A DNA stretch of 64,000 nucleotides, from assembly GCA_020697715.1 (NCBI GenBank), contig JAEHCO010000003.1:128001-192000 (forward strand), written 5' to 3'. This DNA is from Methanobacteriota archaeon (GTDB lineage Archaea; Thermoplasmatota; Thermoplasmata; SG8-5; JAGLSY01). Positions 3,229 through 64,000 of this stretch are shown piece by piece. Every line of letters starts with the position of its first letter. The first letter of the stretch is position 1. A program made the position numbers and the translations under genes. A model generated the notes under the pieces. The model saw only the letters and a list, made by a program, of their open reading frames with translations. It ran no database searches and was not told where the DNA came from.

Positions 3229-4047
3229 TCATCCTGTCCAGGTTTCGAATACCCATTCTACTGAATCCCCATCCTGAAGAACATACTGGCCCGCGCCTAC
3301 AGGTCCGTATTCTCCATCGATATACCATATCCAGTAATAGGCCGAGGTGTCATCGATCCCACCGACCGTGCTTCCTGGTGAGATGCCTTCGATCCCATTG
3401 ACGAACTCGCCCCATCCGAAATCCTGCATATCGAGGCTGTCATATCCAACCGCCTCTTCTAAGGCTCCAAGAGCTGTGTAATTGTCTGTTATCATCGTAT
3501 GGTTCTGATAGGTTCCATTGCCGAAGTTGATTATCACTTCGACAGAGATGCCAGTTTGTTCAAAAACACCACTCGGACCGTCAGCAACTATGAAATTAAC
3601 ATCTATCTCCTGGCCATCATGCACTATGGCGATATCATCCTTCGCGACAAAGGACTCGTTGGTCACTGGAGCCTGAAATCCATCGAAGGAATAGGACCAC
3701 CACATGCTGGCCGTATCCCCTATTCCCTGTACCGTGACATTGTTAGCCACATTGTTAATTGACTCAAGATATGCGACGCCTTCCATGCTGCGTCCCATCT
3801 CGAACATGTCATCTCCGATACTGGCCGCCAGCACTCCAGGAAGCGTGTTATTGGTCGTGGTCACATTGTGCCATTCCACATCCCCATTCCCATAATCGAT
3901 GATCAAAGTCACTGAGATCTCATCGGGATTGATCTCCACTTTATTCATTTCCTGCATGAGAATTATTCCACCGATAGCGGCTCCTATCACCAATGCGACT
4001 ATGACCATGGGCATCCAGCCCAATTCCGCCTTCTCTTCTTCTGCCAA
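3229..4047 (-). CDS. Membrane-anchored protein with two DUF4430/transcobalamin-like beta domains
   Basis: N-terminal TM helix, then two repeats of I(D/N)(Y/F)GNG...(Y/F)..SI..V / GI.GI...WW.Y / YWIWY. Start taken as TTG 4047 after GGAG; ATG 4062 is an alternative. Confidence 0.65.
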   Translation of the reverse strand: MAEEEKAELGWMPMVIVALVIGAAIGGIILMQEMNKVEINPDEISVTLIIDYGNGDVEWHNVTTTNNTLPGVLAASIGDDMFEMGRSMEGVAYLESINNVANNVTVQGIGDTASMWWSYSFDGFQAPVTNESFVAKDDIAIVHDGQEIDVNFIVADGPSGVFEQTGISVEVIINFGNGTYQNHTMITDNYTALGALEEAVGYDSLDMQDFGWGEFVNGIEGISPGSTVGGIDDTSAYYWIWYIDGEYGPVGAGQYVLQDGDSVEWVFETWTG

Positions 4048-4111
4048 TCTGAATCTCTCCATTTCATTCCGAGCTTTTGAATACAATCACTTCGTTCTCG
4101 TATTCAATCAC
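4045..4111 (-). promoter_or_regulatory. Junction cassette (family B), leader-type copy
   Basis: Minus strand TGAATACGAGAACGAAGTGATTGTATTCAAAAGCTCGGAATGAAATGGAGAGATTCAGATTG aligns along its length with 14378-14439. Mini-ORF from GTG 4111 to TGA 4064. Confidence 0.7.
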
Positions 4112-13529: not shown

Positions 13530-14384
13530 TTGGGAGACCCTAAGTTCAGTAGAAGACGGTATGCTACACCATCACATCCTTGGCAAAAAGAAAGGATAGA
13601 TGAAGAGAATGAGATGATCAGAAAATACGGTCTTAAGAATAAGAAGGAACTCTGGAAGGCACAGTCCCTCCTGAGGAACTTCAGACAGAGATCCAGGATC
13701 CTTCAGGCTCAGATCAGGTATGGTAATAAGCAGGCGGAGAAGGAAAGAGACCAGCTTCTGGCCAGATTAGAACGTGCAGGAATACTCGGTAGCGAGGCTT
13801 CCCTGGATGATGTTCTGGCATTGGATGTTGAGGCTGTACTTACAAGAAGATTGCAGACCCTGGCATACATGAAGGGACTGAGCAACAGTGCGAAACAAGC
13901 CCGCCAGTTCATTGTTCATGGACATGTATCCATCGGAGATAGGAAGGTAACTATTCCCGGTTATTTGGTCAAGAGGACCGAAGAAGAATCCATTGAATAT
14001 CTATTAAGCTCGCCGATAGCGAATGACATGCATCCAGCAAGACCAAAGGATGAATTGGAATTGGCTGAGCAGAAGAGAATGCAGGAAGAGGCCGCCAAGG
14101 CCGCGGAAGCACCAGTTGCCGCACCAGAAGGCGCAGATGCTCCAGCCGTGGAACCAAAACCAGAGGGCGAGGCACCAGCAGCAGAGGTAAAACCCGCAGA
14201 GGCTAAGCCAGCTGAAGCAAAACCTGAACCAAAGGTTGAAGCAGCTCCAGCAAAGGAAAAGCCTGCAGAGGCTAAGCCAGCTGAAGCAAAACCCGAACCA
14301 AAGGTTGAAGCAGCTCCAGCAGAGAAAAAGCCTGCAGAGGCTAAGAAGCCAGCAGAAGATAAACCAAAGGAGGCCAATGAATGA
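13530..14384 (+). CDS. rps4: 30S ribosomal protein uS4 with a long Ala/Glu/Pro/Lys C-terminal tail
   Basis: GDPKFSRRRY.TP.HPW, YGLKNKKELW, RRLQT and ARQFIVHGH. Confidence 0.96.
   Translation: MGDPKFSRRRYATPSHPWQKERIDEENEMIRKYGLKNKKELWKAQSLLRNFRQRSRILQAQIRYGNKQAEKERDQLLARLERAGILGSEASLDDVLALDVEAVLTRRLQTLAYMKGLSNSAKQARQFIVHGHVSIGDRKVTIPGYLVKRTEEESIEYLLSSPIANDMHPARPKDELELAEQKRMQEEAAKAAEAPVAAPEGADAPAVEPKPEGEAPAAEVKPAEAKPAEAKPEPKVEAAPAKEKPAEAKPAEAKPEPKVEAAPAEKKPAEAKKPAEDKPKEANE
14196..14346 (+). repeat. 69-nt tandem repeat (about 2.2 copies) in the uS4 tail
   Basis: GCAGAGGCTAAG begins at 14196, 14265 and 14334; the unit encodes AEAKPAEAKPEPKVEAAPAKEKP. Confidence 0.9.
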
Positions 14385-14440
14385 GCGAATGTAATGAGCG
14401 CATTCATAAGCTCCGATCTCAAGGAGGAGATTCAGAATGA
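14378..14440 (+). promoter_or_regulatory. Junction cassette (family B) with coupled mini-ORF 14381-14440
   Basis: TGAATG/CATTCA stem plus a stem over [27 protein letters not shown] overlaps the rps4 stop (ATGA) and the rps11 start (ATGA). Confidence 0.75.
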
Positions 14441-14820
14441 CCAAATGGGCCCTAGCACACATATACGCATCTTACAACAATATATTGATAACATTGACCG
14501 ACCCAACCGGTGCAGAGACAATTACGAAATGCACTGGAGGTATGGTTGTCAAATCTCAGAAGGATGAATCATCTCCATATGCAGCCATGAAGGCAGCAGA
14601 GATGATCGCCGATATCGCAAAGGAGAGGGGCATCGACAGTGTTCATGTCCGTGTAAGAGCTCCAGGCGGTAACAAAGACCTTTCCCCTGGACCAGGAGCA
14701 CAGGCCGCGATCAGAGCACTGGCAAGGGCGGGTTTGAGAATAGGAAGGATAGAGGATGTAACCCCTATCCCTCACGACGGCACCAAGAAGAAAGGCGGCA
14801 GACGTGGAAGAAGGGTGTAA
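14437..14820 (+). CDS. rps11: 30S ribosomal protein uS11
   Basis: [30 protein letters not shown] and [11 protein letters not shown]. Confidence 0.97.
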
Positions 14821-44975: not shown

Positions 44976-46796
44976 ATGATAGACCCCGAGAAAATCGACT
45001 ACAGGAAACTGGGCTTCAAGGCGGGCCTCGAGATACACCATCAGCTCAAGTCCTCCCGGAAGTTATTCTGCCACTGTCCAGCCGAGTTGTCGGCCGACCT
45101 GCAGAAGAACCCGGATTTTACATTCCACAGGCGCTTCAGGGCCGTGATGGGCGAGATGGGGGACTTCGACCCCGGTATGCTGGTCGAAGTTGAAAAGGGC
45201 TATCTGGTCATCTACCATGCGAATGACGCCCATGTGTGCACTTACGAGATGGACGATACTCCTCCATTCTGGCTGGACATGGAATCCGTGGATACTGGTT
45301 ATAAGCTGGCCAGTCTTTTCAATTGCGAGTCGCCAGCCGAGGAAGTTGTCATAAATCGAAAGCAGTACTTGGACGGTTCGATAACCACTGGTTTCCAGCG
45401 TACGATGATAATCGCCAGGGACGGTCATGTGAAGCTTGCCAGTGGCAAGAAGATCACTATCACGAATATCCTTATCGAAGAAGACTCGGCCAGGAAGATC
45501 AAGGCCGAGGATCGCGGTCGAACAGTCTATTACAATCTGGATAGGCTGGGTGTTCCACTTACAGAAATTATAACAGATCACAATGAGATCGACACGCCCG
45601 AGCTTTTAATTGAGGCCATAAAGATGATCGGTATCAATCTCAGATTAACGGGACTGGGTCGTCGCGGTATCGGTGTCGGCAGACAGGATGTGAATATCTC
45701 GATCGATGGTGGTGACAGAGTGGAGTTAAAGGGAGTTCAGGATCTTTCTTTATTGACAAAGTTCTGCGCCCACGAGGTTTGCAGACAGCACGCGCTCATC
45801 GATATTCAATCTAAATTAGCCAGCTTGAATCTGAAGAAGGAAGACTTCGAGCATAATTACATAGATATTACTCATTTATTCAATGATCTGGGTGAGGGAG
45901 AATCAGCCTTCGCGGTCAGGCTGCCCGGTTTTGAGAATATCCTCAAAACCGAAGTCCAGCCAGGCAAGGACTTTGGATATGAGATATTCGAGAAATGCAA
46001 TTTAATTACTGGCATCCTGTACGACGAAATGTTCCATTCGGGCGAGATGAGTCCGGGATCCATTCGCATGATGAACAGGTCGGATGATCTTTTCATCAAT
46101 AAGGGACAGGATGGCGAAATTCGAGCCATCCTGAAACTCGCACCAGGAGATGGATACGTAGCTGCCAGGGGTAGTGAGAAACCAGTTCTCCATACCCTGA
46201 AGAAGACAGTGGAGAGATGCAAGCAGGCCTTTGATGGCGTGCCCCAGGAGACAAGGCGAGTGTTGCCAGATGGTAATAACGAGTTCCTGCGCGTGATCCA
46301 TGGAAAAGGCCGTCTTTACCCGGATACGGACACTCCGCCAGCCCCCTATTCGATGGAGAAATTCCACGCGATAAAGGAAAAGGGCTGGACAAGACCACTT
46401 GACCTTCTCCAGAAATATGAGGAGAAGGGATTGAAATTGCCAATGCTGGAACTTATTATCCGCGATCAGAAGGTTCCATTGTTCCAGAAGTTGGTGGACG
46501 AGGCCAAGGTTCCAGTCTCTCTGGCTATTCGATTGACTGTGGAAATTCCCCGGTGGCTGAGGAGGAAAGGTCATGATTCGGAGATAATCAGCCAATTCAC
46601 AATGATCAGTATTGCTGGCAATGTCATGTCAGGAAAGCTACAGACAAAACACCTGCGCCCGATGATGAAGGAAATATGCATGGCTCCCAAGGAGAACCAG
46701 AGTTCGATAGTGACCAAATGGGTGGATCAGAACAATAAAAAGGATGAAGCGGGCGATGTAAGGGACAAATGGCCAGATGATGCGAGGTGTGTTTGA
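44976..46796 (+). CDS. gatE: Glu-tRNA(Gln) amidotransferase subunit E (divergent)
   Basis: GLEIHHQL, KLFCHC, DGSITTGFQRT, LDRLGVPL.EI, RQDVNISI, RVELKGVQ, GVPQETR and RLYPDTD. Confidence 0.9.
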   Translation: MIDPEKIDYRKLGFKAGLEIHHQLKSSRKLFCHCPAELSADLQKNPDFTFHRRFRAVMGEMGDFDPGMLVEVEKGYLVIYHANDAHVCTYEMDDTPPFWLDMESVDTGYKLASLFNCESPAEEVVINRKQYLDGSITTGFQRTMIIARDGHVKLASGKKITITNILIEEDSARKIKAEDRGRTVYYNLDRLGVPLTEIITDHNEIDTPELLIEAIKMIGINLRLTGLGRRGIGVGRQDVNISIDGGDRVELKGVQDLSLLTKFCAHEVCRQHALIDIQSKLASLNLKKEDFEHNYIDITHLFNDLGEGESAFAVRLPGFENILKTEVQPGKDFGYEIFEKCNLITGILYDEMFHSGEMSPGSIRMMNRSDDLFINKGQDGEIRAILKLAPGDGYVAARGSEKPVLHTLKKTVERCKQAFDGVPQETRRVLPDGNNEFLRVIHGKGRLYPDTDTPPAPYSMEKFHAIKEKGWTRPLDLLQKYEEKGLKLPMLELIIRDQKVPLFQKLVDEAKVPVSLAIRLTVEIPRWLRRKGHDSEIISQFTMISIAGNVMSGKLQTKHLRPMMKEICMAPKENQSSIVTKWVDQNNKKDEAGDVRDKWPDDARCV

Positions 46797-46859
46797 ATGA
46801 AGTCGCCATTGCTCCTCATTCAACTCGAAACCTCCAAAATTATGGAGGTTTCCCAATGA
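46793..46859 (+). promoter_or_regulatory. Junction cassette (family B) with coupled mini-ORF 46797-46859
   Basis: Stems TTGAATGA/TCATTCAA and GAAACCTCCA/TGGAGGTTTC. ORF MKSPLLLIQLETSKIMEVSQ* abuts the gatE stop and overlaps the gatD ATG. Confidence 0.8.
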
Positions 46860-48259
46860 GTGAAGAATACCAACCACCAGATGGTTACAGAGGTCCTCTT
46901 CTTGAGCGATTGGTCGAGGCCAAGATACGCACGTGGTCAGTGATCCAGGTGAATAAGACTGACGGATCACATTATGAGGGTGTGCTTCTGCCACGTTCCA
47001 TCCACACTTCTGATGATTATCTTTCCATCAAGGTGGACACTGGCTATAATATTGGCATCCAGCTTCCCGATGATGCCACAATAAAAGAGGTCGGCTACAA
47101 TGCGGGATCGTATCAAATTCCTGAGAAGATAGTGGAGAAGACAGCTGGACTTCCAAATGTCACGCTACTGGGCACAGGAGGAACAGTGGCCAGTCGTCTT
47201 GATTATCGAACTGGAGCCGTACTACCAGCCTTCACCCCATCCGAGCTTTTCTCCGCAGTTCCCGAGCTCATCGACATATGCAATTTAACTCCAAAGACCC
47301 TTTACCAGATACTTTCAGAGAACTTCTGCCCCGAATACTGGATAAAAACAGCTGAGGCAGTGGCCAAGGAGATCGAGGGCGGAGCAGATGGTGTGATAAT
47401 CGGTCATGGCACCGACACAATGAGCTATTCTGGCTCGGCACTTTCATACATGTTCCAGGACCTTCCAGTTCCAGTGGTCATCGTGGGCTCGCAGAGAAGC
47501 AGTGACCGCCCATCCAGTGATGGGCCCATAAACATGATGAACGCCACCACACTGGCCGCCTATGGTGATTTGGCAGAAGTGGTCGTCGTCATGCACGGGA
47601 CGACGAGCGACAATTACGACCTCATCCACAGAGCGACAAGGGTGCGCAAGATGCACAGTGCGCGGAGAGATACATTCCGCACTGTCAGTGATACCCCATT
47701 GGGCCAGATCAAGGATAAGGAGATCAAATACTTCAAGGACGATATCAGACGCCGCAGCCCGAAAGAGGACTTCCATCTGAACACCAAGATGGACGAGCGC
47801 GTGACCATGTTGTATTTCTACCCTGGCATGGAACCGGATGTCATGCACGCGGTCATCGACAAAGGCTATCATGGAATTGTCATGATCGGCACCGGATTGG
47901 GACATGTTGGCAAGCCCATGTATGAGGCTCTGGACAGAGCGCAGGAAGAAGAAATTCCTGTGGTCATTGTCGTCCAGCCAATGTTCGGCTTCTCACATCT
48001 TAGGGTTTACGAAACGGGCCGTGACATGCTTGCCCGTGGAGTGATAGAGGGCAAGAACATGCTTCCCGAGGCAGCACTTCCAAAACTCATGTGGGCGCTT
48101 GGCCAGACACAGGATGTGAAGGAAGTGGAAAAGATCATGCACACCAATCTCGCGGGCGAGATCACACAAAGAGAGCCATACAGTGGATTCCCAATATTCC
48201 AGGGTGGCGTTCCGAACTTCTATGATAATTATCGGAATGTCGATAGGCTGGAGAAGTAA
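46856..48259 (+). CDS. gatD: Glu-tRNA(Gln) amidotransferase subunit D
   Basis: GYNIGI N-domain, TGGTVASRLDYRTGAV, HGTDT, GSQRSSDRPSSD and RKMHS.RRDTF; ATG 46856 follows GGAGGT. Confidence 0.93.
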   Translation: MSEEYQPPDGYRGPLLERLVEAKIRTWSVIQVNKTDGSHYEGVLLPRSIHTSDDYLSIKVDTGYNIGIQLPDDATIKEVGYNAGSYQIPEKIVEKTAGLPNVTLLGTGGTVASRLDYRTGAVLPAFTPSELFSAVPELIDICNLTPKTLYQILSENFCPEYWIKTAEAVAKEIEGGADGVIIGHGTDTMSYSGSALSYMFQDLPVPVVIVGSQRSSDRPSSDGPINMMNATTLAAYGDLAEVVVVMHGTTSDNYDLIHRATRVRKMHSARRDTFRTVSDTPLGQIKDKEIKYFKDDIRRRSPKEDFHLNTKMDERVTMLYFYPGMEPDVMHAVIDKGYHGIVMIGTGLGHVGKPMYEALDRAQEEEIPVVIVVQPMFGFSHLRVYETGRDMLARGVIEGKNMLPEAALPKLMWALGQTQDVKEVEKIMHTNLAGEITQREPYSGFPIFQGGVPNFYDNYRNVDRLEK

Positions 48260-58543: not shown

Positions 58544-59422
58544 ATGGATTACTTACTATACACTGGATGTACTGTTCCTTTGAGGGCTGTTGGTTACGAG
58601 ATAGCGGCCATCAAGGTCGCGAAAGAACTGGGTGTCAATTTACTGCCAATGGAAGAATTCACGTGCTGTGGCTACCCGATAACCTTCCTTGATAATGACA
58701 GTTCCATGGCTCTGGCAGTTTTGAATATCTGCCTTGCGGAGGAGAAGGGATTGAACATCGCGACATTATGCAATTCATGCACCGGTAATTTAACTAAAGC
58801 AAATTACCGAATGAAGACTGAAGAGAAATTCAGGAACAGGATCAATGAACTTCTCAGCCCAACTGGTCACCAATGGAAAGGAACTATCGAGATCAAACAT
58901 TTCGCTCGTATCCTTTACGAGGATGTCGGAGAGGAAAAGATGAAGGCCAGGGTTACGAAAAGCTTGGCTGGCAGTAATATCGCTCCCATGTATGGCTGCC
59001 ATTATCTGAAACCCTCCAAGATCTACGATGGCTTTGATCATCCAGATCATCCAGAATCCATGGAGACATTGATCCGATCTACCGGGGCAAAGCCAGTTCA
59101 ATATGTTGAGAAGACCCTTTGTTGCGGAGGCCCAATATTGGCACTTGGAGAAGAGATGCCTATGAACATGTCCCAGCGCATACTGGACGGTATGAAGAGG
59201 GAGAAGGCGGACGTGGCTGTTGTCGTGTGTCCCTTCTGCAATGTGATGATGGGCGAGTACCAATCCACCATCGGCGATAAGGCCGGGACAGAGTATGGTA
59301 TACCCACTTTCTACATGCCTCAGATAATCGGCCTGGCCTTCGGTTTCACACCAAAGGAACTTGGCCTGAAGAAGAAACAGGTCAAGAAAGCATTTGGCGA
59401 TATCTTACAGGAGGATGAGTAG
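58544..59422 (+). CDS. hdrB: Heterodisulfide reductase-like subunit B
   Basis: Two CCG domains: YTGC...CCG...CNSC and YGCH...CCGG...CPFC. Confidence 0.92.
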   Translation: MDYLLYTGCTVPLRAVGYEIAAIKVAKELGVNLLPMEEFTCCGYPITFLDNDSSMALAVLNICLAEEKGLNIATLCNSCTGNLTKANYRMKTEEKFRNRINELLSPTGHQWKGTIEIKHFARILYEDVGEEKMKARVTKSLAGSNIAPMYGCHYLKPSKIYDGFDHPDHPESMETLIRSTGAKPVQYVEKTLCCGGPILALGEEMPMNMSQRILDGMKREKADVAVVVCPFCNVMMGEYQSTIGDKAGTEYGIPTFYMPQIIGLAFGFTPKELGLKKKQVKKAFGDILQEDE

Positions 59423-59423
59423 T

Positions 59424-62400
59424 ATGACGGCTGACAAGAAAGGAGTGATGGTCATCGGAGGAGGTATTGGAGGTATCCAGTCCGCTCTTGACCTGGCAGA
59501 TTCTGGAGTGAATGTCTATCTGGTCGAGAAAGGCCCATCGGTCGGTGGCCGAATGGCCCAGTTGGACAAGACCTTCCCGACAAATGATTGTTCCATGTGT
59601 ATCCTGTCCCCAAAATTAGTAGCCGCGGCCAGACACCCGATGATCAACCTGCTGACAATGTCACAGGTCAAGACATTGGAGGGAGAACCAGGAAACTTCA
59701 AGGCCACTATCACCACCCATCCAAGATACATCGATATTAGCAAATGTGTTGGCTGTGGAGAGTGTGCGAAGGTGTGCCCCATCGAAATGCCAAATGAGTT
59801 CGATGTTGGAACCGCCACGAGGGGAGCGACATACATACCGTTCCCACAGGCCACCCCACTCAAATATTCAATTACAAGACACGGCACGCCACCTTGTGAG
59901 GCCGAGTGTCCAGCTGGAGTTCATGTTCAGGGTTATGTCGCACTTATTGCCAAGGGCAAGTACATGGAAGCTCTGGACCTTCACAGGGAGTTCAATCCAC
60001 TACCGATAATCTGCGGCAGGGTTTGTCCACATACCTGTGAGAGCGTGTGCAACCGTGCGGAAGTGGATGAGCCGATCGCTATCGCTCATCTCAAGAGATT
60101 CATGGCAGCTTATGAGATGGATAATAGGGATGAGCCAGTAGAACCATTCGACCAGACCGATGGTAAGACCGTGGCCATAATTGGTTCCGGACCCGCTGGA
60201 TTGACAGCCGCTTATTACCTGGCCAGACACGGCCACAAACCAACCATCTACGAAGCACTGCCAGTTGCTGGCGGTATGCTGAGAGTGGGCATCCCTGAAT
60301 ACAGATTACCCCGTGATCTACTCCAGGCCGAGATAGACTATATCAAGGCCAAGGGAGTGGACATCCAGCTTAATAAGAGACTTGGAACTGACATAATGCT
60401 GGATGATCTGAAGAAGGATTTCGATGCAGTGTTCCTGGCCATAGGCTCTCATGTCTCAAAATCCATGAGAGTGACAGCTGAAGACACTCCAGGCGTCATA
60501 CCTGGTGTGGATTTCCTGCGTGATGTCAACCTGGGCAAGGAAGTGCAACTTGGAAACAAGGTCGCCGTCGTTGGTGGCGGAGATGTCGCTATCGATGCTG
60601 TAAGGGTCGCTCACCGTCTGGGAAAAGAAGCCTTCATGATCTACAGAAGGACAAGGAACGAGATGCCAGCTCATGAAACTGAGATCATCGATACCGAGGA
60701 AGAAGGTATCGATATCAAATTCCTCACACAGCCAGTCCGCGTCGTCGAGACAGGCGGGAAGGTATCTGGTATCGAGTGCGTCCGCATGGAACTGGGAGAG
60801 CCAGATGACAGTGGGAGGCGCAGGCCAGTTCCGGTCGAAGGTTCTGAATTCATAATAGAAGTTGATAATATCATACCAGCTATTGGCCAGGATTCAGATG
60901 TTGAATATCTGAAGAAGGCCGGTATCAGTACGACGGACTGGAAGACCATCGTCGCTTGTGAGGAAACTTACATGACCAGTGATGAAGGCGTATTTGCCGC
61001 TGGAGATGCAGTATCTGGCCCATGGACAGTTGTCGGTGCGGTTGGCGGAGCGAAGAAAGCCGCCGATGCTATCAATTCCTATCTATTGGGCGAGGATTTC
61101 CCAATGGAATGCAAGCTTCAAGACGTGATAACATTTGAAGATCTGATGCTGGAGAAGAAATTGGAAACAGCTCCAAGAGCATGTGTTGACACTCTGGATG
61201 TCGAGCAGAGGGAATGCAATTTCAAGGAAGTTGTCGGCCAGCTCACAGAAGCACAGGCAGTTGCCGAGGCAGAGCGTTGCTTAGCCTGTGGTGGTTGTTC
61301 AGGTTGCTGGCAGTGTATCGGGGCTTGTGAGGCAGATGCTATAGATTTCTCACAAGAGGAATACGAGACCGAGGTCGACATAGGCTCGGTCGTCGTCGCC
61401 ACTGGCTTCGATCTTATAGACGCGGGCTTCAGGCCGGAGTACAATTACGAGAACTTTGACAATGTCATAACAGGTATCGAATTTGAAAGATACCTGAGTG
61501 CGTCCGGACCTACCAGCGGTCATCTTATCAGACCAAAGGATCATAAATCTCCCAAGAAGATCGCCTTCATCCAGTGTGTGGGATCCAGGGATGAGCATTA
61601 TGGGTGCGCGTACTGTTCCAGAGTGTGCTGTATGTACGCGATCAAGGAAGCCATGCTGATCCGGGGTCATGACAAGGATGTTGAAGATATCACAATCTTC
61701 TTCATGGACATAAGGGCCTTTGGAAAAGGATTTGAGCAATATTATGAGCGTGCGAAGGATGAGAACATAAACTTCTCAAGGTCCAGACCATCTCATTTCA
61801 TAGAGGATCCAGAGACTGGAGATGTATTGATCCAGACCGAGGACACGGAAACTGGCGAGATCAGTGAATATCGAGCTGACCTCGTGATCCTATCATCGGC
61901 CATGGTGCCATCAAAGGGAACTGACGAACTGGCTGAGAAGCTGGGTGTGGAACTTAATGAGTCCGGTTTCTTCAAGGAAGGCGAGACCGACAATATCCCA
62001 CTCGAAACGACCAGGCCGGGAATATATTCCTGCGGCTGCTCGTCCGGACCTAAGGATATTCCGGATACCGTATCTCAAGCATCTGGAGCTGCCGCTAAGG
62101 CAGGCGAATGGGTGAAGGATTACAGGTCAGCTCCTGAGAAGAAGGACATCACACCAGTTGATCCATACGGCAAGCCCAGGATAGGTGTGTTCATCTGTCA
62201 CTGTGGTCTGAATATCGGAGGTACTATCGATGTGGTAGATGTTGCTAAATTCGCAAAAGAACTTCCATATGTCGAGTACACGGATGCCAATGTTTACACT
62301 TGCTCGGAGAACACACAGGGCGAGATCCAGGATCTCATACACAGTGAGAAGCTGAACAGAGTGGTTATCGCTTCTTGCAGTCCTCGAACTCACGAACCGA

Positions 62401-63869
62401 TCTTCAGGCAGATGTGTGCTGAGGCAGGCCTGAATCCATATCTTTTCGAGATGGTGAACATACGTGATCAGGGTTCATGGGTTCATTTGAATGAGCCCGA
62501 AGCAGCGACCGAGAAGGCCAAGAGTCTGGTCGCGGCCGCGGTTGCCAAGTCCAGATTCCTGAAGCCATTGGTGGCTAGTGAACTGGAAGTCAATCATGAC
62601 GCGCTCGTCATCGGTGGCGGAGTATCCGGTCTCACAGCAGCCACAAGCCTGGCATCTTTGGGATTCAAAGTGAATCTTGTGGAAAAGTCAGATGTTCTCG
62701 GTGGCGCATTGCTGGATAAAGACCTACTGATACCATCCAATGTCAAGGCAAGTGACATGCTGGCCGACCTGATAAAGAAGGCCGGGGACAAAGGAGTGAA
62801 GTTCTTCAAAGAGACCGAGCTCATTGACCTTGAAGGCTTTGTTGGAAACTTCAAGGTCAAAGCCATGCAGAAGGGAACTGAGGAACTTGACTTCGAGGTT
62901 GGAGCAATCATTCTGGCCATAGGTGCGAAACTCTATGAGCCCACAAAGGGCGAGTTCGGTTTCGGATTGCATCCGAACGTCATCACTAACCAGGATCTGG
63001 AAGATCTGATGATGGAGCATCAGGGTGACAAACTCATGCTCAATGGAAAGGAGCTGAAGCGTGTTGCAATGATCCATTGTGTTGGCTCTCGTGACAAGGA
63101 AGGCTTCAAGGACTGTTCCAGATACTGCTGTCAAGTCACCCTCAAGCAGATAGACGAATTGAGGGCTCTGGGCATCGATACCGTGGATTATAACAGGGAC
63201 ATACGTGCCTTCAGCAAGGGAGCGGAGGAATTGTACAGGAAGACCAGAGAGGATGGTACAATGTACATGCGCTACACTCCTGAAGAACTTCCGGAGATCA
63301 TCCCAGATGGTGATGGTGTGAAGATAAGGACCTACGATGCCCTTGTTGGAGCGACTGTCGAATTGCCATTTGACGCTGTTGTTCTATCAGTGGGAATGAG
63401 AGCTCATGAGATAGATGTTAAACATTTGAGAAGCCTGATGAAAGTTCCAATGGGCGCGGATGGCTTCTTCTTAGAAAGCCACCCGAAGCTGGGACCTGTT
63501 GAGACCAATACCGCCGGTATCTATCTTTGTGGAACCGCACAGTTCCCCAAGGACGTGGTCGATACCATCGCTCAGTCATATGGAGCCGCCGCTAAGGCAG
63601 CCACAGTCCTGTCCAAGGACAAGCTCCTGGGTGTTGCCCAGATATCCAGTGTCGATCCTGAACTATGCATAGGTTGTGAGACCTGTATCGATATCTGTCC
63701 TTACAATGCCATCGAGAAGGAGAATGGCAAGGCCAAGGTATTGGAGGCCGTTTGTAAGGGTTGCGGATCATGCGCGGCCGCTTGCAGGAACGGTGCGATA
63801 CAGCAGGCTGGTTTCAGAGATGAATACATTGTTACTATGATAGACAATGCTCTTGAGGAGGTGGAATGA
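59424..63869 (+). CDS. hdrA: Large HdrA (HdrL-type): two HdrA modules with an inserted GltD/NfnB-like NAD(P)H module
   Basis: LDKTFPTNDCSMCIL; insert with GRVCPH.CE..C.R, GSGPAG, GIPEYRLP and YRR; CVGSRD...CSRVCC; VFICHCG; second CVGSRD...CSRYCC; terminal ferredoxin. Confidence 0.92.
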   Translation: MTADKKGVMVIGGGIGGIQSALDLADSGVNVYLVEKGPSVGGRMAQLDKTFPTNDCSMCILSPKLVAAARHPMINLLTMSQVKTLEGEPGNFKATITTHPRYIDISKCVGCGECAKVCPIEMPNEFDVGTATRGATYIPFPQATPLKYSITRHGTPPCEAECPAGVHVQGYVALIAKGKYMEALDLHREFNPLPIICGRVCPHTCESVCNRAEVDEPIAIAHLKRFMAAYEMDNRDEPVEPFDQTDGKTVAIIGSGPAGLTAAYYLARHGHKPTIYEALPVAGGMLRVGIPEYRLPRDLLQAEIDYIKAKGVDIQLNKRLGTDIMLDDLKKDFDAVFLAIGSHVSKSMRVTAEDTPGVIPGVDFLRDVNLGKEVQLGNKVAVVGGGDVAIDAVRVAHRLGKEAFMIYRRTRNEMPAHETEIIDTEEEGIDIKFLTQPVRVVETGGKVSGIECVRMELGEPDDSGRRRPVPVEGSEFIIEVDNIIPAIGQDSDVEYLKKAGISTTDWKTIVACEETYMTSDEGVFAAGDAVSGPWTVVGAVGGAKKAADAINSYLLGEDFPMECKLQDVITFEDLMLEKKLETAPRACVDTLDVEQRECNFKEVVGQLTEAQAVAEAERCLACGGCSGCWQCIGACEADAIDFSQEEYETEVDIGSVVVATGFDLIDAGFRPEYNYENFDNVITGIEFERYLSASGPTSGHLIRPKDHKSPKKIAFIQCVGSRDEHYGCAYCSRVCCMYAIKEAMLIRGHDKDVEDITIFFMDIRAFGKGFEQYYERAKDENINFSRSRPSHFIEDPETGDVLIQTEDTETGEISEYRADLVILSSAMVPSKGTDELAEKLGVELNESGFFKEGETDNIPLETTRPGIYSCGCSSGPKDIPDTVSQASGAAAKAGEWVKDYRSAPEKKDITPVDPYGKPRIGVFICHCGLNIGGTIDVVDVAKFAKELPYVEYTDANVYTCSENTQGEIQDLIHSEKLNRVVIASCSPRTHEPIFRQMCAEAGLNPYLFEMVNIRDQGSWVHLNEPEAATEKAKSLVAAAVAKSRFLKPLVASELEVNHDALVIGGGVSGLTAATSLASLGFKVNLVEKSDVLGGALLDKDLLIPSNVKASDMLADLIKKAGDKGVKFFKETELIDLEGFVGNFKVKAMQKGTEELDFEVGAIILAIGAKLYEPTKGEFGFGLHPNVITNQDLEDLMMEHQGDKLMLNGKELKRVAMIHCVGSRDKEGFKDCSRYCCQVTLKQIDELRALGIDTVDYNRDIRAFSKGAEELYRKTREDGTMYMRYTPEELPEIIPDGDGVKIRTYDALVGATVELPFDAVVLSVGMRAHEIDVKHLRSLMKVPMGADGFFLESHPKLGPVETNTAGIYLCGTAQFPKDVVDTIAQSYGAAAKAATVLSKDKLLGVAQISSVDPELCIGCETCIDICPYNAIEKENGKAKVLEAVCKGCGSCAAACRNGAIQQAGFRDEYIVTMIDNALEEVE

Positions 63870-63932
63870 ATGAGTTCATTTACATTCACCATTCATTTCG
63901 ACACCTCCAAAATTATGGAGGTGCAGTAGATG
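63863..63932 (+). promoter_or_regulatory. Junction cassette (family B) with coupled mini-ORF 63870-63929
   Basis: Stems GGAATGAATG/CATTCATTTC and CACCTCCA/TGGAGGTG. ORF MSSFTFTIHFDTSKIMEVQ* abuts the hdrA stop and the mvhD ATG. Confidence 0.8.
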
Positions 63933-64000
63933 ACTGACAATAATGAGAACAATGAGAATTTCGAACCAAAGATAATCGCCTTCCTCTGCACCTGGTGTTC
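63930..64000 (+). CDS. mvhD: Hydrogenase iron-sulfur subunit MvhD (3'-truncated by the window)
   Basis: MTDNNENNENFEPKIIAFLCTWC matches the MvhD N-terminal motif; follows hdrA. Confidence 0.85.
   Translation, partial: MTDNNENNENFEPKIIAFLCTWC

Follow-up and report, generated by a model that had tools for sequence, protein, structure and literature searches.

A candidate copy-and-paste translational relay between genes of uncultured Thermoplasmata

In the bicistronic design of synthetic biology (BCD; Mutalik et al. 2013, outlined in PMC6302717), an accessible first ribosome-binding site (RBS1) drives translation of a short leader open reading frame (ORF) which contains a second site (RBS2), and the leader's stop codon overlaps the target gene's start codon. 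According to the same source, the translating ribosome is thought to unfold structure around RBS2. For natural gene pairs, an intergenic distance of about 20 nt nearly abolishes termination-reinitiation coupling in H. volcanii as well as E. coli, and short overlaps are enriched in genes for heteromeric complexes, as stated by Huber et al. (PMC10666635). Given this spacer effect, a 60-nt insertion should uncouple a gene pair unless it is itself translated. Here, we analyze such an insertion in a 64,000-nucleotide stretch (the window) of an archaeal genome assigned to the Thermoplasmata (GCA_020697715.1, contig JAEHCO010000003.1, positions 128,001 to 192,000), where one copy lies between gatE and gatD and another between an hdrA-like gene and mvhD.

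Both copies belong to what we refer to as family B, a lineage-specific set of 59-60-nt intercistronic cassettes for which a covariance model (CM) was built from 10 copies. The cassette is repeated, is polymorphic for insertion, folds into two hairpins and carries a mini-ORF in stop/start contact with the genes on either side. Based on these features, we consider it probable that family B cassettes act as copy-and-paste translational relays and thus represent a natural bicistronic design. The genome holding the window (G000; 2.12 Mb in 34 contigs) belongs to one family of uncultured Thermoplasmata, f1, together with four further genomes (G005, G006, G007 and G008). Comparisons were extended to an order-level sample of 22 genomes and a class-level sample of 151 genomes, the latter consisting of the 5 f1 genomes and 146 others.

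Two copies in the window and their empty counterparts in relatives

A preliminary description made from the window alone had claimed that both copies share one layout with identical spacing and an exact 20-mer, and this is borne out. The 20-mer ACCTCCAAAATTATGGAGGT is found at 46830-46849 and 63903-63922 on the forward strand (0.01 matches expected by chance; 0/100 shuffles reach the observed count), TGAATGA begins 36 nt 5' of it in both copies (at 46794 and 63867), and the two align without gaps from TGAATGA through GGAGGT. The two reverse-strand matches seen at 2 mismatches are the same near-palindromes. A search of the whole G000 assembly at up to 2 mismatches returned these two copies only. 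At the foot of the Shine-Dalgarno (SD) hairpin, the gatE/gatD copy has an A-T pair where the hdrA/mvhD copy has C-G, a covariation already noticed in the preliminary description; this pair is AU in 8 and CG in 2 of the 10 copies aligned. With only 68% identity over a 62-nt core, the two window copies have diverged too far for either to be a fresh copy of the other.

Counting G000, 12 of the order's 22 genomes encode GatD homologues. Those of the other four f1 genomes are 83-98% identical to the G000 protein (98% in G006) and all begin with MSEEY, VSEEY or LSEEY at the same codon. The gatE stop overlaps the gatD start in G006 (GTGA) and G008 (ATGA), and there is no spacer in G007 or G005 either, meaning that the junction lacks the cassette in 4/4 of these relatives. 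BLAST homology between G000 and G006, at 89-90% nucleotide identity, breaks exactly between window positions 46790 and 46857, which leaves an unmatched stretch of 66 nt in G000 versus 6 nt in G006. The hdrA/mvhD junction is likewise empty in both relatives compared: in G006 the last sense codon is followed by TAG and ATG, and in G008 the genes overlap as TAATG, while G000 carries exactly 60 additional bases between the last sense codon and TAG.

Polymorphism in the opposite direction is also found. The mvhD gene and the following gene for an Fe-S protein overlap by ATGA in G000 and G008, whereas a cassette separates them in G006; it is to this copy in G006 that the G000 hdrA/mvhD copy is most closely related (81%), and the C-G pair is common to both. 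Five junctions filled elsewhere are empty in G000, namely two between the large and small subunit genes of aconitase-family enzymes (TGA-A-ATG and TGATG), the beta/gamma and gamma/delta junctions of 2-oxoacid:ferredoxin oxidoreductase (POR; ATGA and TAATG, respectively) and a nuoI-like/nuoJ junction (ATGA). In total, 8 junctions occur with both filled and empty alleles among relatives, with flanks that are 89-94% identical. Judged by these alignments, the gatE/gatD and hdrA/mvhD cassettes are inserted elements.

The suggestion that the same element was placed independently in two unrelated operons is thereby upheld, both junctions being empty in relatives and further family members standing at other gene pairs. 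A start of GatD further upstream would have undermined it: the open frame of gatD reaches back to GTG 46787, and TTG 46793 overlaps the gatE stop (TTGA). Both starts are ruled out by the orthologous junctions, and the stretch in question is not conserved protein. The preliminary description had further held that removal of the spacer between the ATGA repeats leaves GAGGTG-7 nt-ATG right behind the gatE stop. This is correct as an approximation of the ancestral state but not as an exact restoration, because the last gatE codons also differ from those of G006 and G008.

Hairpins and mini-ORF of the cassette

The consensus fold of the 10 copies consists of two independent hairpins. In the alignment, 95.7% of cells are paired and compensatory changes are found in 11 of 21 pairs (7/11 in hairpin 1, 4/10 in hairpin 2), a result reached by 0/500 shuffles, with slid controls giving at most 1. 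Folded alone, hairpin 1 of the gatE/gatD copy (copy 1) has a predicted energy of -7.3 kcal/mol (z -3.2) and hairpin 2 one of -15.6 kcal/mol (z -6.6), none of 200 shuffles being equally stable as the latter; whole-cassette folds reach -32.0 and -29.6 kcal/mol (z -5.7 and -4.6). ACCTCC, which lies in the 5' arm of hairpin 2, is a copy of the anti-SD, because the 16S rRNA of G000 ends in GGATCACCTCCT, which contains the same letters. The positions of all elements are collected in the table below.

The mini-ORF is 19-20 codons long in family B, apart from one composite copy of 39 codons, and spans the entire hairpin 2. The SD lies inside a 10-bp stem that a ribosome translating the mini-ORF would have to cross, which is the structural arrangement of coupling by RNA unfolding. 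Its stop is located at -4 (9 copies), -1 (1) or 0 (1) relative to the downstream start in 11/11 copies. Wherever the upstream side is readable (10 copies), the mini-ORF starts at 0 or -4 relative to the upstream stop. The spacings typical of termination-reinitiation (-4, -1 and about 0) are therefore found at both ends. Among 35 distinct variants of the mini-ORF, 5 are synonymous and 30 non-synonymous, with 21% synonymous expected by chance, and compensatory stem changes alter the encoded residues (e.g. N/S together with I/T). As far as these variants tell, selection is on the structure and not on the mini-ORF peptide, which is not conserved.

Rearranged copies retain an open frame. In the copy G005_C85, two compensated stem changes have removed the consensus ATG, and 7 nt are deleted; its ORF starts instead at an ATG 4 nt upstream, and the copy still ends in ATGA. 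Variant and mosaic loci contain ORFs of 28, 35+36 (in tandem), 46, 64 and 73 codons, which remain open across additional hairpin modules as far as the next start.

Several known types of element do not match the cassette. Leader-peptide attenuation of the erm/cat type, in which a stalled ribosome switches conserved alternative pairings and the stalling peptide is itself conserved, does not fit, as the consensus is without alternative pairings, which appear in single-sequence folds only, and the peptide is not conserved. The boundary regions expected to pair in an archaeal bulge-helix-bulge intron, with a 4-bp helix between two 3-nt bulges, are not complementary at the 5' and 3' sides, as judged by eye and with no dedicated program. 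An intrinsic terminator can be ruled out, with only T3-T4 following hairpin 2.

In the single-sequence folds of the window copies (46816-46865 and 63888-63935, forward strand), the downstream start-codon region is the pairing partner of hairpin 1's 3' arm, which lengthens hairpin 2, an arrangement absent from the consensus fold.

Table 1 Positions of cassette features and flanking genes in the window
Feature	Position	Strand	Basis or remark
SD1, copy 1: GAGGTG in the final gatE codons, 7 nt 5' of the mini-ORF ATG	46784..46789	+	Native ribosome-binding site of the junction; same SD precedes the gatD start in the empty junctions of relatives
gatE stop TGA, within the 5' arm of hairpin 1	46794..46796	+	Sequence; GatB_N domain
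Hairpin 1, copy 1: TTGAATGA paired with TCATTCAA; encloses gatE stop and mini-ORF ATG	46793..46823	+	Consensus fold of 10 copies
Mini-ORF (putative relay ORF), copy 1: MKSPLLLIQLETSKIMEVSQ; 20 codons + TGA, directly after the gatE stop; stop overlaps gatD ATG (ATGA)	46797..46859	+	ORF reading
Hairpin 2, copy 1: 10-bp stem; 5' arm ACCTCC, 3' arm SD GGAGGT (46844-46849)	46827..46852	+	Fold, covariation
gatD, with its true start at ATG 46856 (MSEEYQPPDGY...)	46856..48259	+	Orthologue starts in 4/4 other f1 genomes; Pfam GatD_N, Asparaginase
HdrA-like ORF stop TGA	63867-63869	+	ORF reading; Pfam Pyr_redox_2 with Fer4
SD1, copy 2: GGAGGTG in the final HdrA-like codons	63857..63863	+	Same heptamer ahead of mvhD where the junction is empty (G006, G008)
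60-base insert of G000, absent in G006 and G008; holds new TGA stop, mini-ORF and both hairpins	63867..63926	+	Pairwise alignment; G008 junction
Mini-ORF, copy 2: MSSFTFTIHFDTSKIMEVQ; 19 codons + TAG; mvhD ATG immediately 3'	63870..63929	+	ORF reading
Hairpin 2, copy 2: CACCTCCA paired with TGGAGGTG; SD GGAGGTG at 63917-63923	63902..63923	+	Sequence, consensus fold
mvhD start; gene continues beyond the window end	63930..64000	+	ORF, Pfam FlpD

The HdrA-like ORF upstream of copy 2 (59394-63869, forward strand) is open over 1491 codons and contains three Pyr_redox_2 stretches, Fer4_20 and several Fer4 domains. It is much longer than an ordinary HdrA and may be a fusion, or its true start may lie further in.

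Distribution, sister family and mode of spread

The CM matches 5/5 f1 genomes and 0/146 others in the class sample. Within the order, CM matches are limited to f1 and G013, and a pattern scan gave the same picture, with matches in all four other f1 genomes plus G013. The matches on contig C69 of G013 were not counted as independent because their coordinates are identical to those on G005:C58, while the two matches on contig C23 of G013 were kept as a variant locus. It should be noted that one assembled contig is present in two metagenome-assembled genome (MAG) records (G013:C69 and G005:C58; loci L150 and L176), so that counts across genomes are not independent.

Eleven family B copies at unrelated junctions were identified, 2 in G000, 1 in G006, 2 in G007, 3 in G008 and 3 in G005, with pairwise identities of 56-90%. 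All 11 lie in sense orientation between two genes. Based on Pfam domains, the junctions are GatE/GatD, HdrA-like/MvhD, MvhD/Fe-S protein, aconitase-family large/small subunit (n=3), POR beta/gamma and gamma/delta, polyferredoxin/NuoJ-like subunit, an upstream gene of the locus/PyrK-like Fe-S protein and a contig edge/zinc-ribbon protein. By these domain assignments, the flanking pairs include subunits of heteromeric complexes, specifically at the GatE/GatD, HdrA-like/MvhD, three aconitase-family and POR junctions. A single B-like copy has an ACCCCC/GGGGGT stem. Seven loci are of a variant type in which hairpin 2 reads RTTTCC/GGAAAY and is followed by about 27 further bases carrying the SD; one of these is found in G000 (contig C30, 26339-26415).

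Two loci illustrate how modules are combined. At L026 (G000 C30:26293-26436), one family A module (see below) and one variant module share a single 46-codon ORF that connects the upstream stop with an ATGA on the next gene. At L033 (G005:C10), located between the genes for ribosomal proteins L24 and S4e, two variant cassettes stand in tandem, with ORFs of 35 and 36 codons chained by ATGA.

Public metagenome contigs scanned with CCTCCAAAWTTATGGAGG yielded 70 loci but no true cassette, the best CM score being 37 bits versus 84-105 for real copies. The same query returned 54 loci, not rescored with the CM, from a genome collection; 8 of them are archaeal MAG records which, judged by their titles, fit the known f1 genomes. 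Rfam gave 0 matches at E <= 1 on three cassette-bearing loci. Full-text literature searches, with supplementary files outside their reach, returned no account of such an element and none joining Thermoplasmata with miniature inverted-repeat elements. The cassette would combine a small structured repeat with translational coupling through a leader ORF, each of which is a known kind.

A more abundant sister family, family A, is present in the same genomes. About 40 copies were found in G000 by nhmmer (E < 0.01), a shorter profile gave 26 matches at E < 0.001, and a family A CM gave 25-31 matches per f1 genome, with 31 candidates scored in each. No match was found in the other 146 genomes of the class except for two weak ones in G011. 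Family A shares the architecture of family B and is built from a TGAATG/CATTCA hairpin around the stop and an ATG, a short second stem over part of the SD and then the start codon, and 12 of its 15 predicted pairs show compensatory changes. Examples in the window are located at 4035-4110 (reverse strand) and 14374-14449 (forward strand). In hairpin 1 of family A, the internal loop, in which GA faces GA, is invariant (columns 15-16 and 24-25 of alignment A5), and we take it to resemble the tandem sheared G-A pairs of the K-turn and K-loop motifs bound by L7Ae. In four copies, at 4035-4110 of the window (reverse strand) and at C22:45796-45870, C11:364172-364247 and C11:477410-477484 of G000, the ATG has been lost by a compensated pair change, ATG having become ATA or AAG with a matching change of the partner base.

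With regard to spread, 11 copies at unrelated loci and 8 junctions with both filled and empty alleles are what would be expected of MITEs (miniature inverted-repeat transposable elements). Terminal inverted repeats are absent from the aligned copies, whose ends are direct (A)ATGA repeats and whose inverted repeats are the internal hairpins. The 4-nt ATGA flanks most copies, yet equals the native stop/start overlap, and at hdrA/mvhD the insert has TGA and TAG on its two sides. Direct repeats of at least 10 nt flanking the copies were not found, save one trivial match in a tandem array. A long target duplication of the SD segment, as GGAGGTG on both sides of the hdrA/mvhD copy might indicate, was rejected as a general rule, since the right-hand SD and spacer at gatE/gatD match other cassettes and not the target. 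Repetitive extragenic palindromic (REP) sequences and bacterial interspersed mosaic elements (BIMEs) moved by REP-associated tyrosine transposases, which are short extragenic palindromes of either orientation that typically follow gene ends, are also not matched, with 11/11 family B copies being sense-oriented and ending on a start codon. The last codons of the upstream gene also differ between filled and empty alleles in some cases (gatE; POR beta, G008 versus G000). This would fit copying anchored on microhomologies of the SD and ATGA(G), though this is speculation.

One IS200/IS605-type Y1_Tnp gene is encoded in G000 (C1:16359-16709). Its flanks show no likeness to the cassette and contig C1 holds no nhmmer match, the search having been confined to this transposase family. 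A single gene with no link to the cassettes found, the Y1 transposase was set aside as a candidate mobiliser. Within C1:16305-16997 (reverse strand), the gene adjoins a seemingly tRNA-like stretch.

A proposed translational relay, its alternatives and its closest parallels

Each cassette stands between the native SD of its junction and the downstream start codon, and brings an ATG at the upstream stop, a frame of 19-20 codons and a second SD, locked in hairpin 2 against the anti-SD copy. In the proposed relay, the ribosome ending the upstream gene would melt hairpin 1 and restart at the mini-ORF ATG, hairpin 2 would be unwound by the ribosome translating the mini-ORF, and termination at ATGA, with the freed SD in the mRNA channel of the ribosome, would be followed by restart on the downstream gene. 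Since the cassette makes two -4/0 junctions out of one, it is proposed that the 60-nt insertion leaves termination-reinitiation coupling unbroken. The cassette may also tie downstream translation more strictly to upstream translation. Translation of the mini-ORF and unmasking of the SD are inferred, as is the way in which the copies spread. More tentatively, and with our doubts outweighing our confidence, the cassettes might represent a new class of translationally self-neutralising small elements. Such elements would carry their own start codon, a relay ORF, an anti-SD-locked SD and a stop/start overlap, would leave the 1:1 coupling of subunit genes unaffected or tightened, and would spread without inverted ends or classical target duplication, perhaps by copying at SD/ATGA microhomologies.

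A number of observations weigh against the relay. The single-copy minimum-energy folds of both window copies depart from the consensus around hairpin 1. The absence of stops in family B is by itself not significant (P ~0.12), because the copies share an open consensus; preservation of the frame in rearranged copies is a better argument for a relay ORF than openness within family B. The downstream gene's own frame is also open across 10/11 family B copies, although that frame is interrupted in the hdrA/mvhD copy as well as in the variant loci and bears no sign of purifying selection. The B-like copy G008_C157 is without a clear restart. Family A keeps the simple chain of gene, mini-ORF and gene in just 8 of 26 matches, as counted with a crude script, and the four copies that have lost the hairpin-1 ATG keep the stem, so that structure can persist without a relay. 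As a result of this scarcity and these losses, the relay is not simply transferable to family A. Finally, no terminal inverted repeats, clean target duplication or transposase link was found for the copies, and we therefore use the term mobile on the basis of presence and absence only.

An alternative is that the cassette is a selfish or neutral structured repeat of the REP, BIME or MITE kind. Its hairpins would then serve DNA propagation, the ORF geometry would reflect the survivors of selection against polar insertions, and the downstream gene would initiate independently whenever hairpin 2 breathes. The 8 junctions polymorphic for presence or absence, hairpin modules combined in mosaic and tandem arrays (L036, L023 and L033), a sister family as abundant as family A (at least 25 CM matches per f1 genome besides the nhmmer matches in G000), family A copies with the stem kept and the ATG lost, and a peptide that is not conserved are all in line with this account. 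Random insertion should, however, occur in both orientations and also in harmless spacers outside operons, whereas 11/11 family B copies are in sense and exactly at SD/start junctions. For essential genes, gatD among them, a stem of -15.6 kcal/mol over the SD would carry a cost if nothing opened it, and the frame is regained after indels. The lack of terminal inverted repeats and of flanking direct repeats of at least 10 nt beyond the trivial tandem-array match, together with a single Y1 transposase gene with unrelated flanks, further speaks against such a repeat, which we regard as unlikely. Less likely still is a cis-regulatory RNA leader for a regulon of redox and biosynthetic complexes, under the control either of a trans factor (e.g. 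a protein binding the RNA of hairpin 1) or of a physical signal (e.g. temperature, with the SD hairpin as thermosensor). RNA thermometers do work through SD-sequestering hairpins, the internal loop of hairpin 1 (TC opposite TC) is at least 90% conserved amid covarying flanking pairs, the loop of hairpin 2 is nearly invariant, and family A has its own invariant GA/GA loop. In sister species, these junctions nevertheless function with no cassette present; moreover, no such factor was identified, the three loci compared with Rfam at E <= 1 have no match, and the flanking genes share no single theme beyond being complex subunits.

Two further explanations place the function in a protein product. 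An in-frame insertion would add about 21 N-terminal residues to the downstream protein, starting from TTG 46793 or GTG 46787 in the case of GatD, similar to in-frame Rickettsia palindromic elements. This would make use of the gatD frame open from 46787 and of the open downstream frames in 10/11 family B copies, and in G008_C101 the downstream frame begins with an ATG overlapping the upstream stop. It is at odds with orthologues that begin at MSEEY, their start codon lying on the upstream stop, with the in-frame TAG directly before the mvhD ATG, with 0/7 variant loci linking the frame to the gene and with GGAGGT standing 6 nt before ATG 46856; moreover, 8 of 35 variants are synonymous in this frame versus 21% expected, which is no excess. 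We consider it very improbable. That the cassette is a duplicated gene for a functional micro-protein of about 20 amino acids can hardly be credited: an SD, an ATG and an open frame are present in every family B copy, but 30 of 35 variants change a residue, the compensatory stem changes are non-synonymous, the length ranges from 19 to 73 codons across related copies, and the orthologous junctions lack the gene.

Returning to the relay, if it works as proposed, nature reached the trick of the bicistronic design and made it portable, providing a ready-made, evolution-tested part for insulating and coupling archaeal gene expression. It would also offer a natural experiment on whether coupling proceeds by RNA unfolding, reinitiation or both, given that these gene pairs occur in sister species both with the cassette and without it, and it would widen the known cargo of small mobile elements to translation signals rather than promoters or terminators. 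For annotation, a warning follows: gene callers may lengthen GatD by about 21-23 false residues and other proteins by about 20, or call spurious genes of 20 amino acids, which concerns 10/11 family B copies.

Among described systems, MITEs, REP/BIME sequences and Rickettsia palindromic elements, as described in PMC10969869, are likewise small, structured, multi-copy and polymorphic repeats, some with in-frame ORFs and some in mosaic arrays. The cassette differs from them in lacking terminal inverted repeats and a demonstrated partner transposase, and in that it is always in sense, sits exactly between SD and start codon and carries translation signals. Salmonella mgtQ, located between mgtC and mgtB, is similarly a short intercistronic ORF whose translation governs stem-loops controlling the next gene. 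According to PMC8092293, it is a single-locus regulator said to use ribosome-destabilising residues. Unlike the cassette, it is neither repeated nor stop-start coupled at both ends. Translational coupling by unfolding or by termination-reinitiation (PMC12548453 and PMC10666635) resembles the cassette in a hairpin-sequestered SD that upstream translation would open and in the -4/-1/0 spacings, which here occur at both ends. The cases known so far are gene-specific and evolved in place, whereas the cassette is a portable 60-nt module found at many unrelated junctions. The likeness to BCD, in the outline of that design cited at the outset, extends to a leader ORF with an internal second ribosome-binding site and a stop overlapping the next start. 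In contrast to the synthetic device, the cassette is natural, genome-repeated and polymorphic between species, and it stands between two cistrons, with its own start coupled to the upstream stop and its second ribosome-binding site predicted to be locked by an anti-SD arm.

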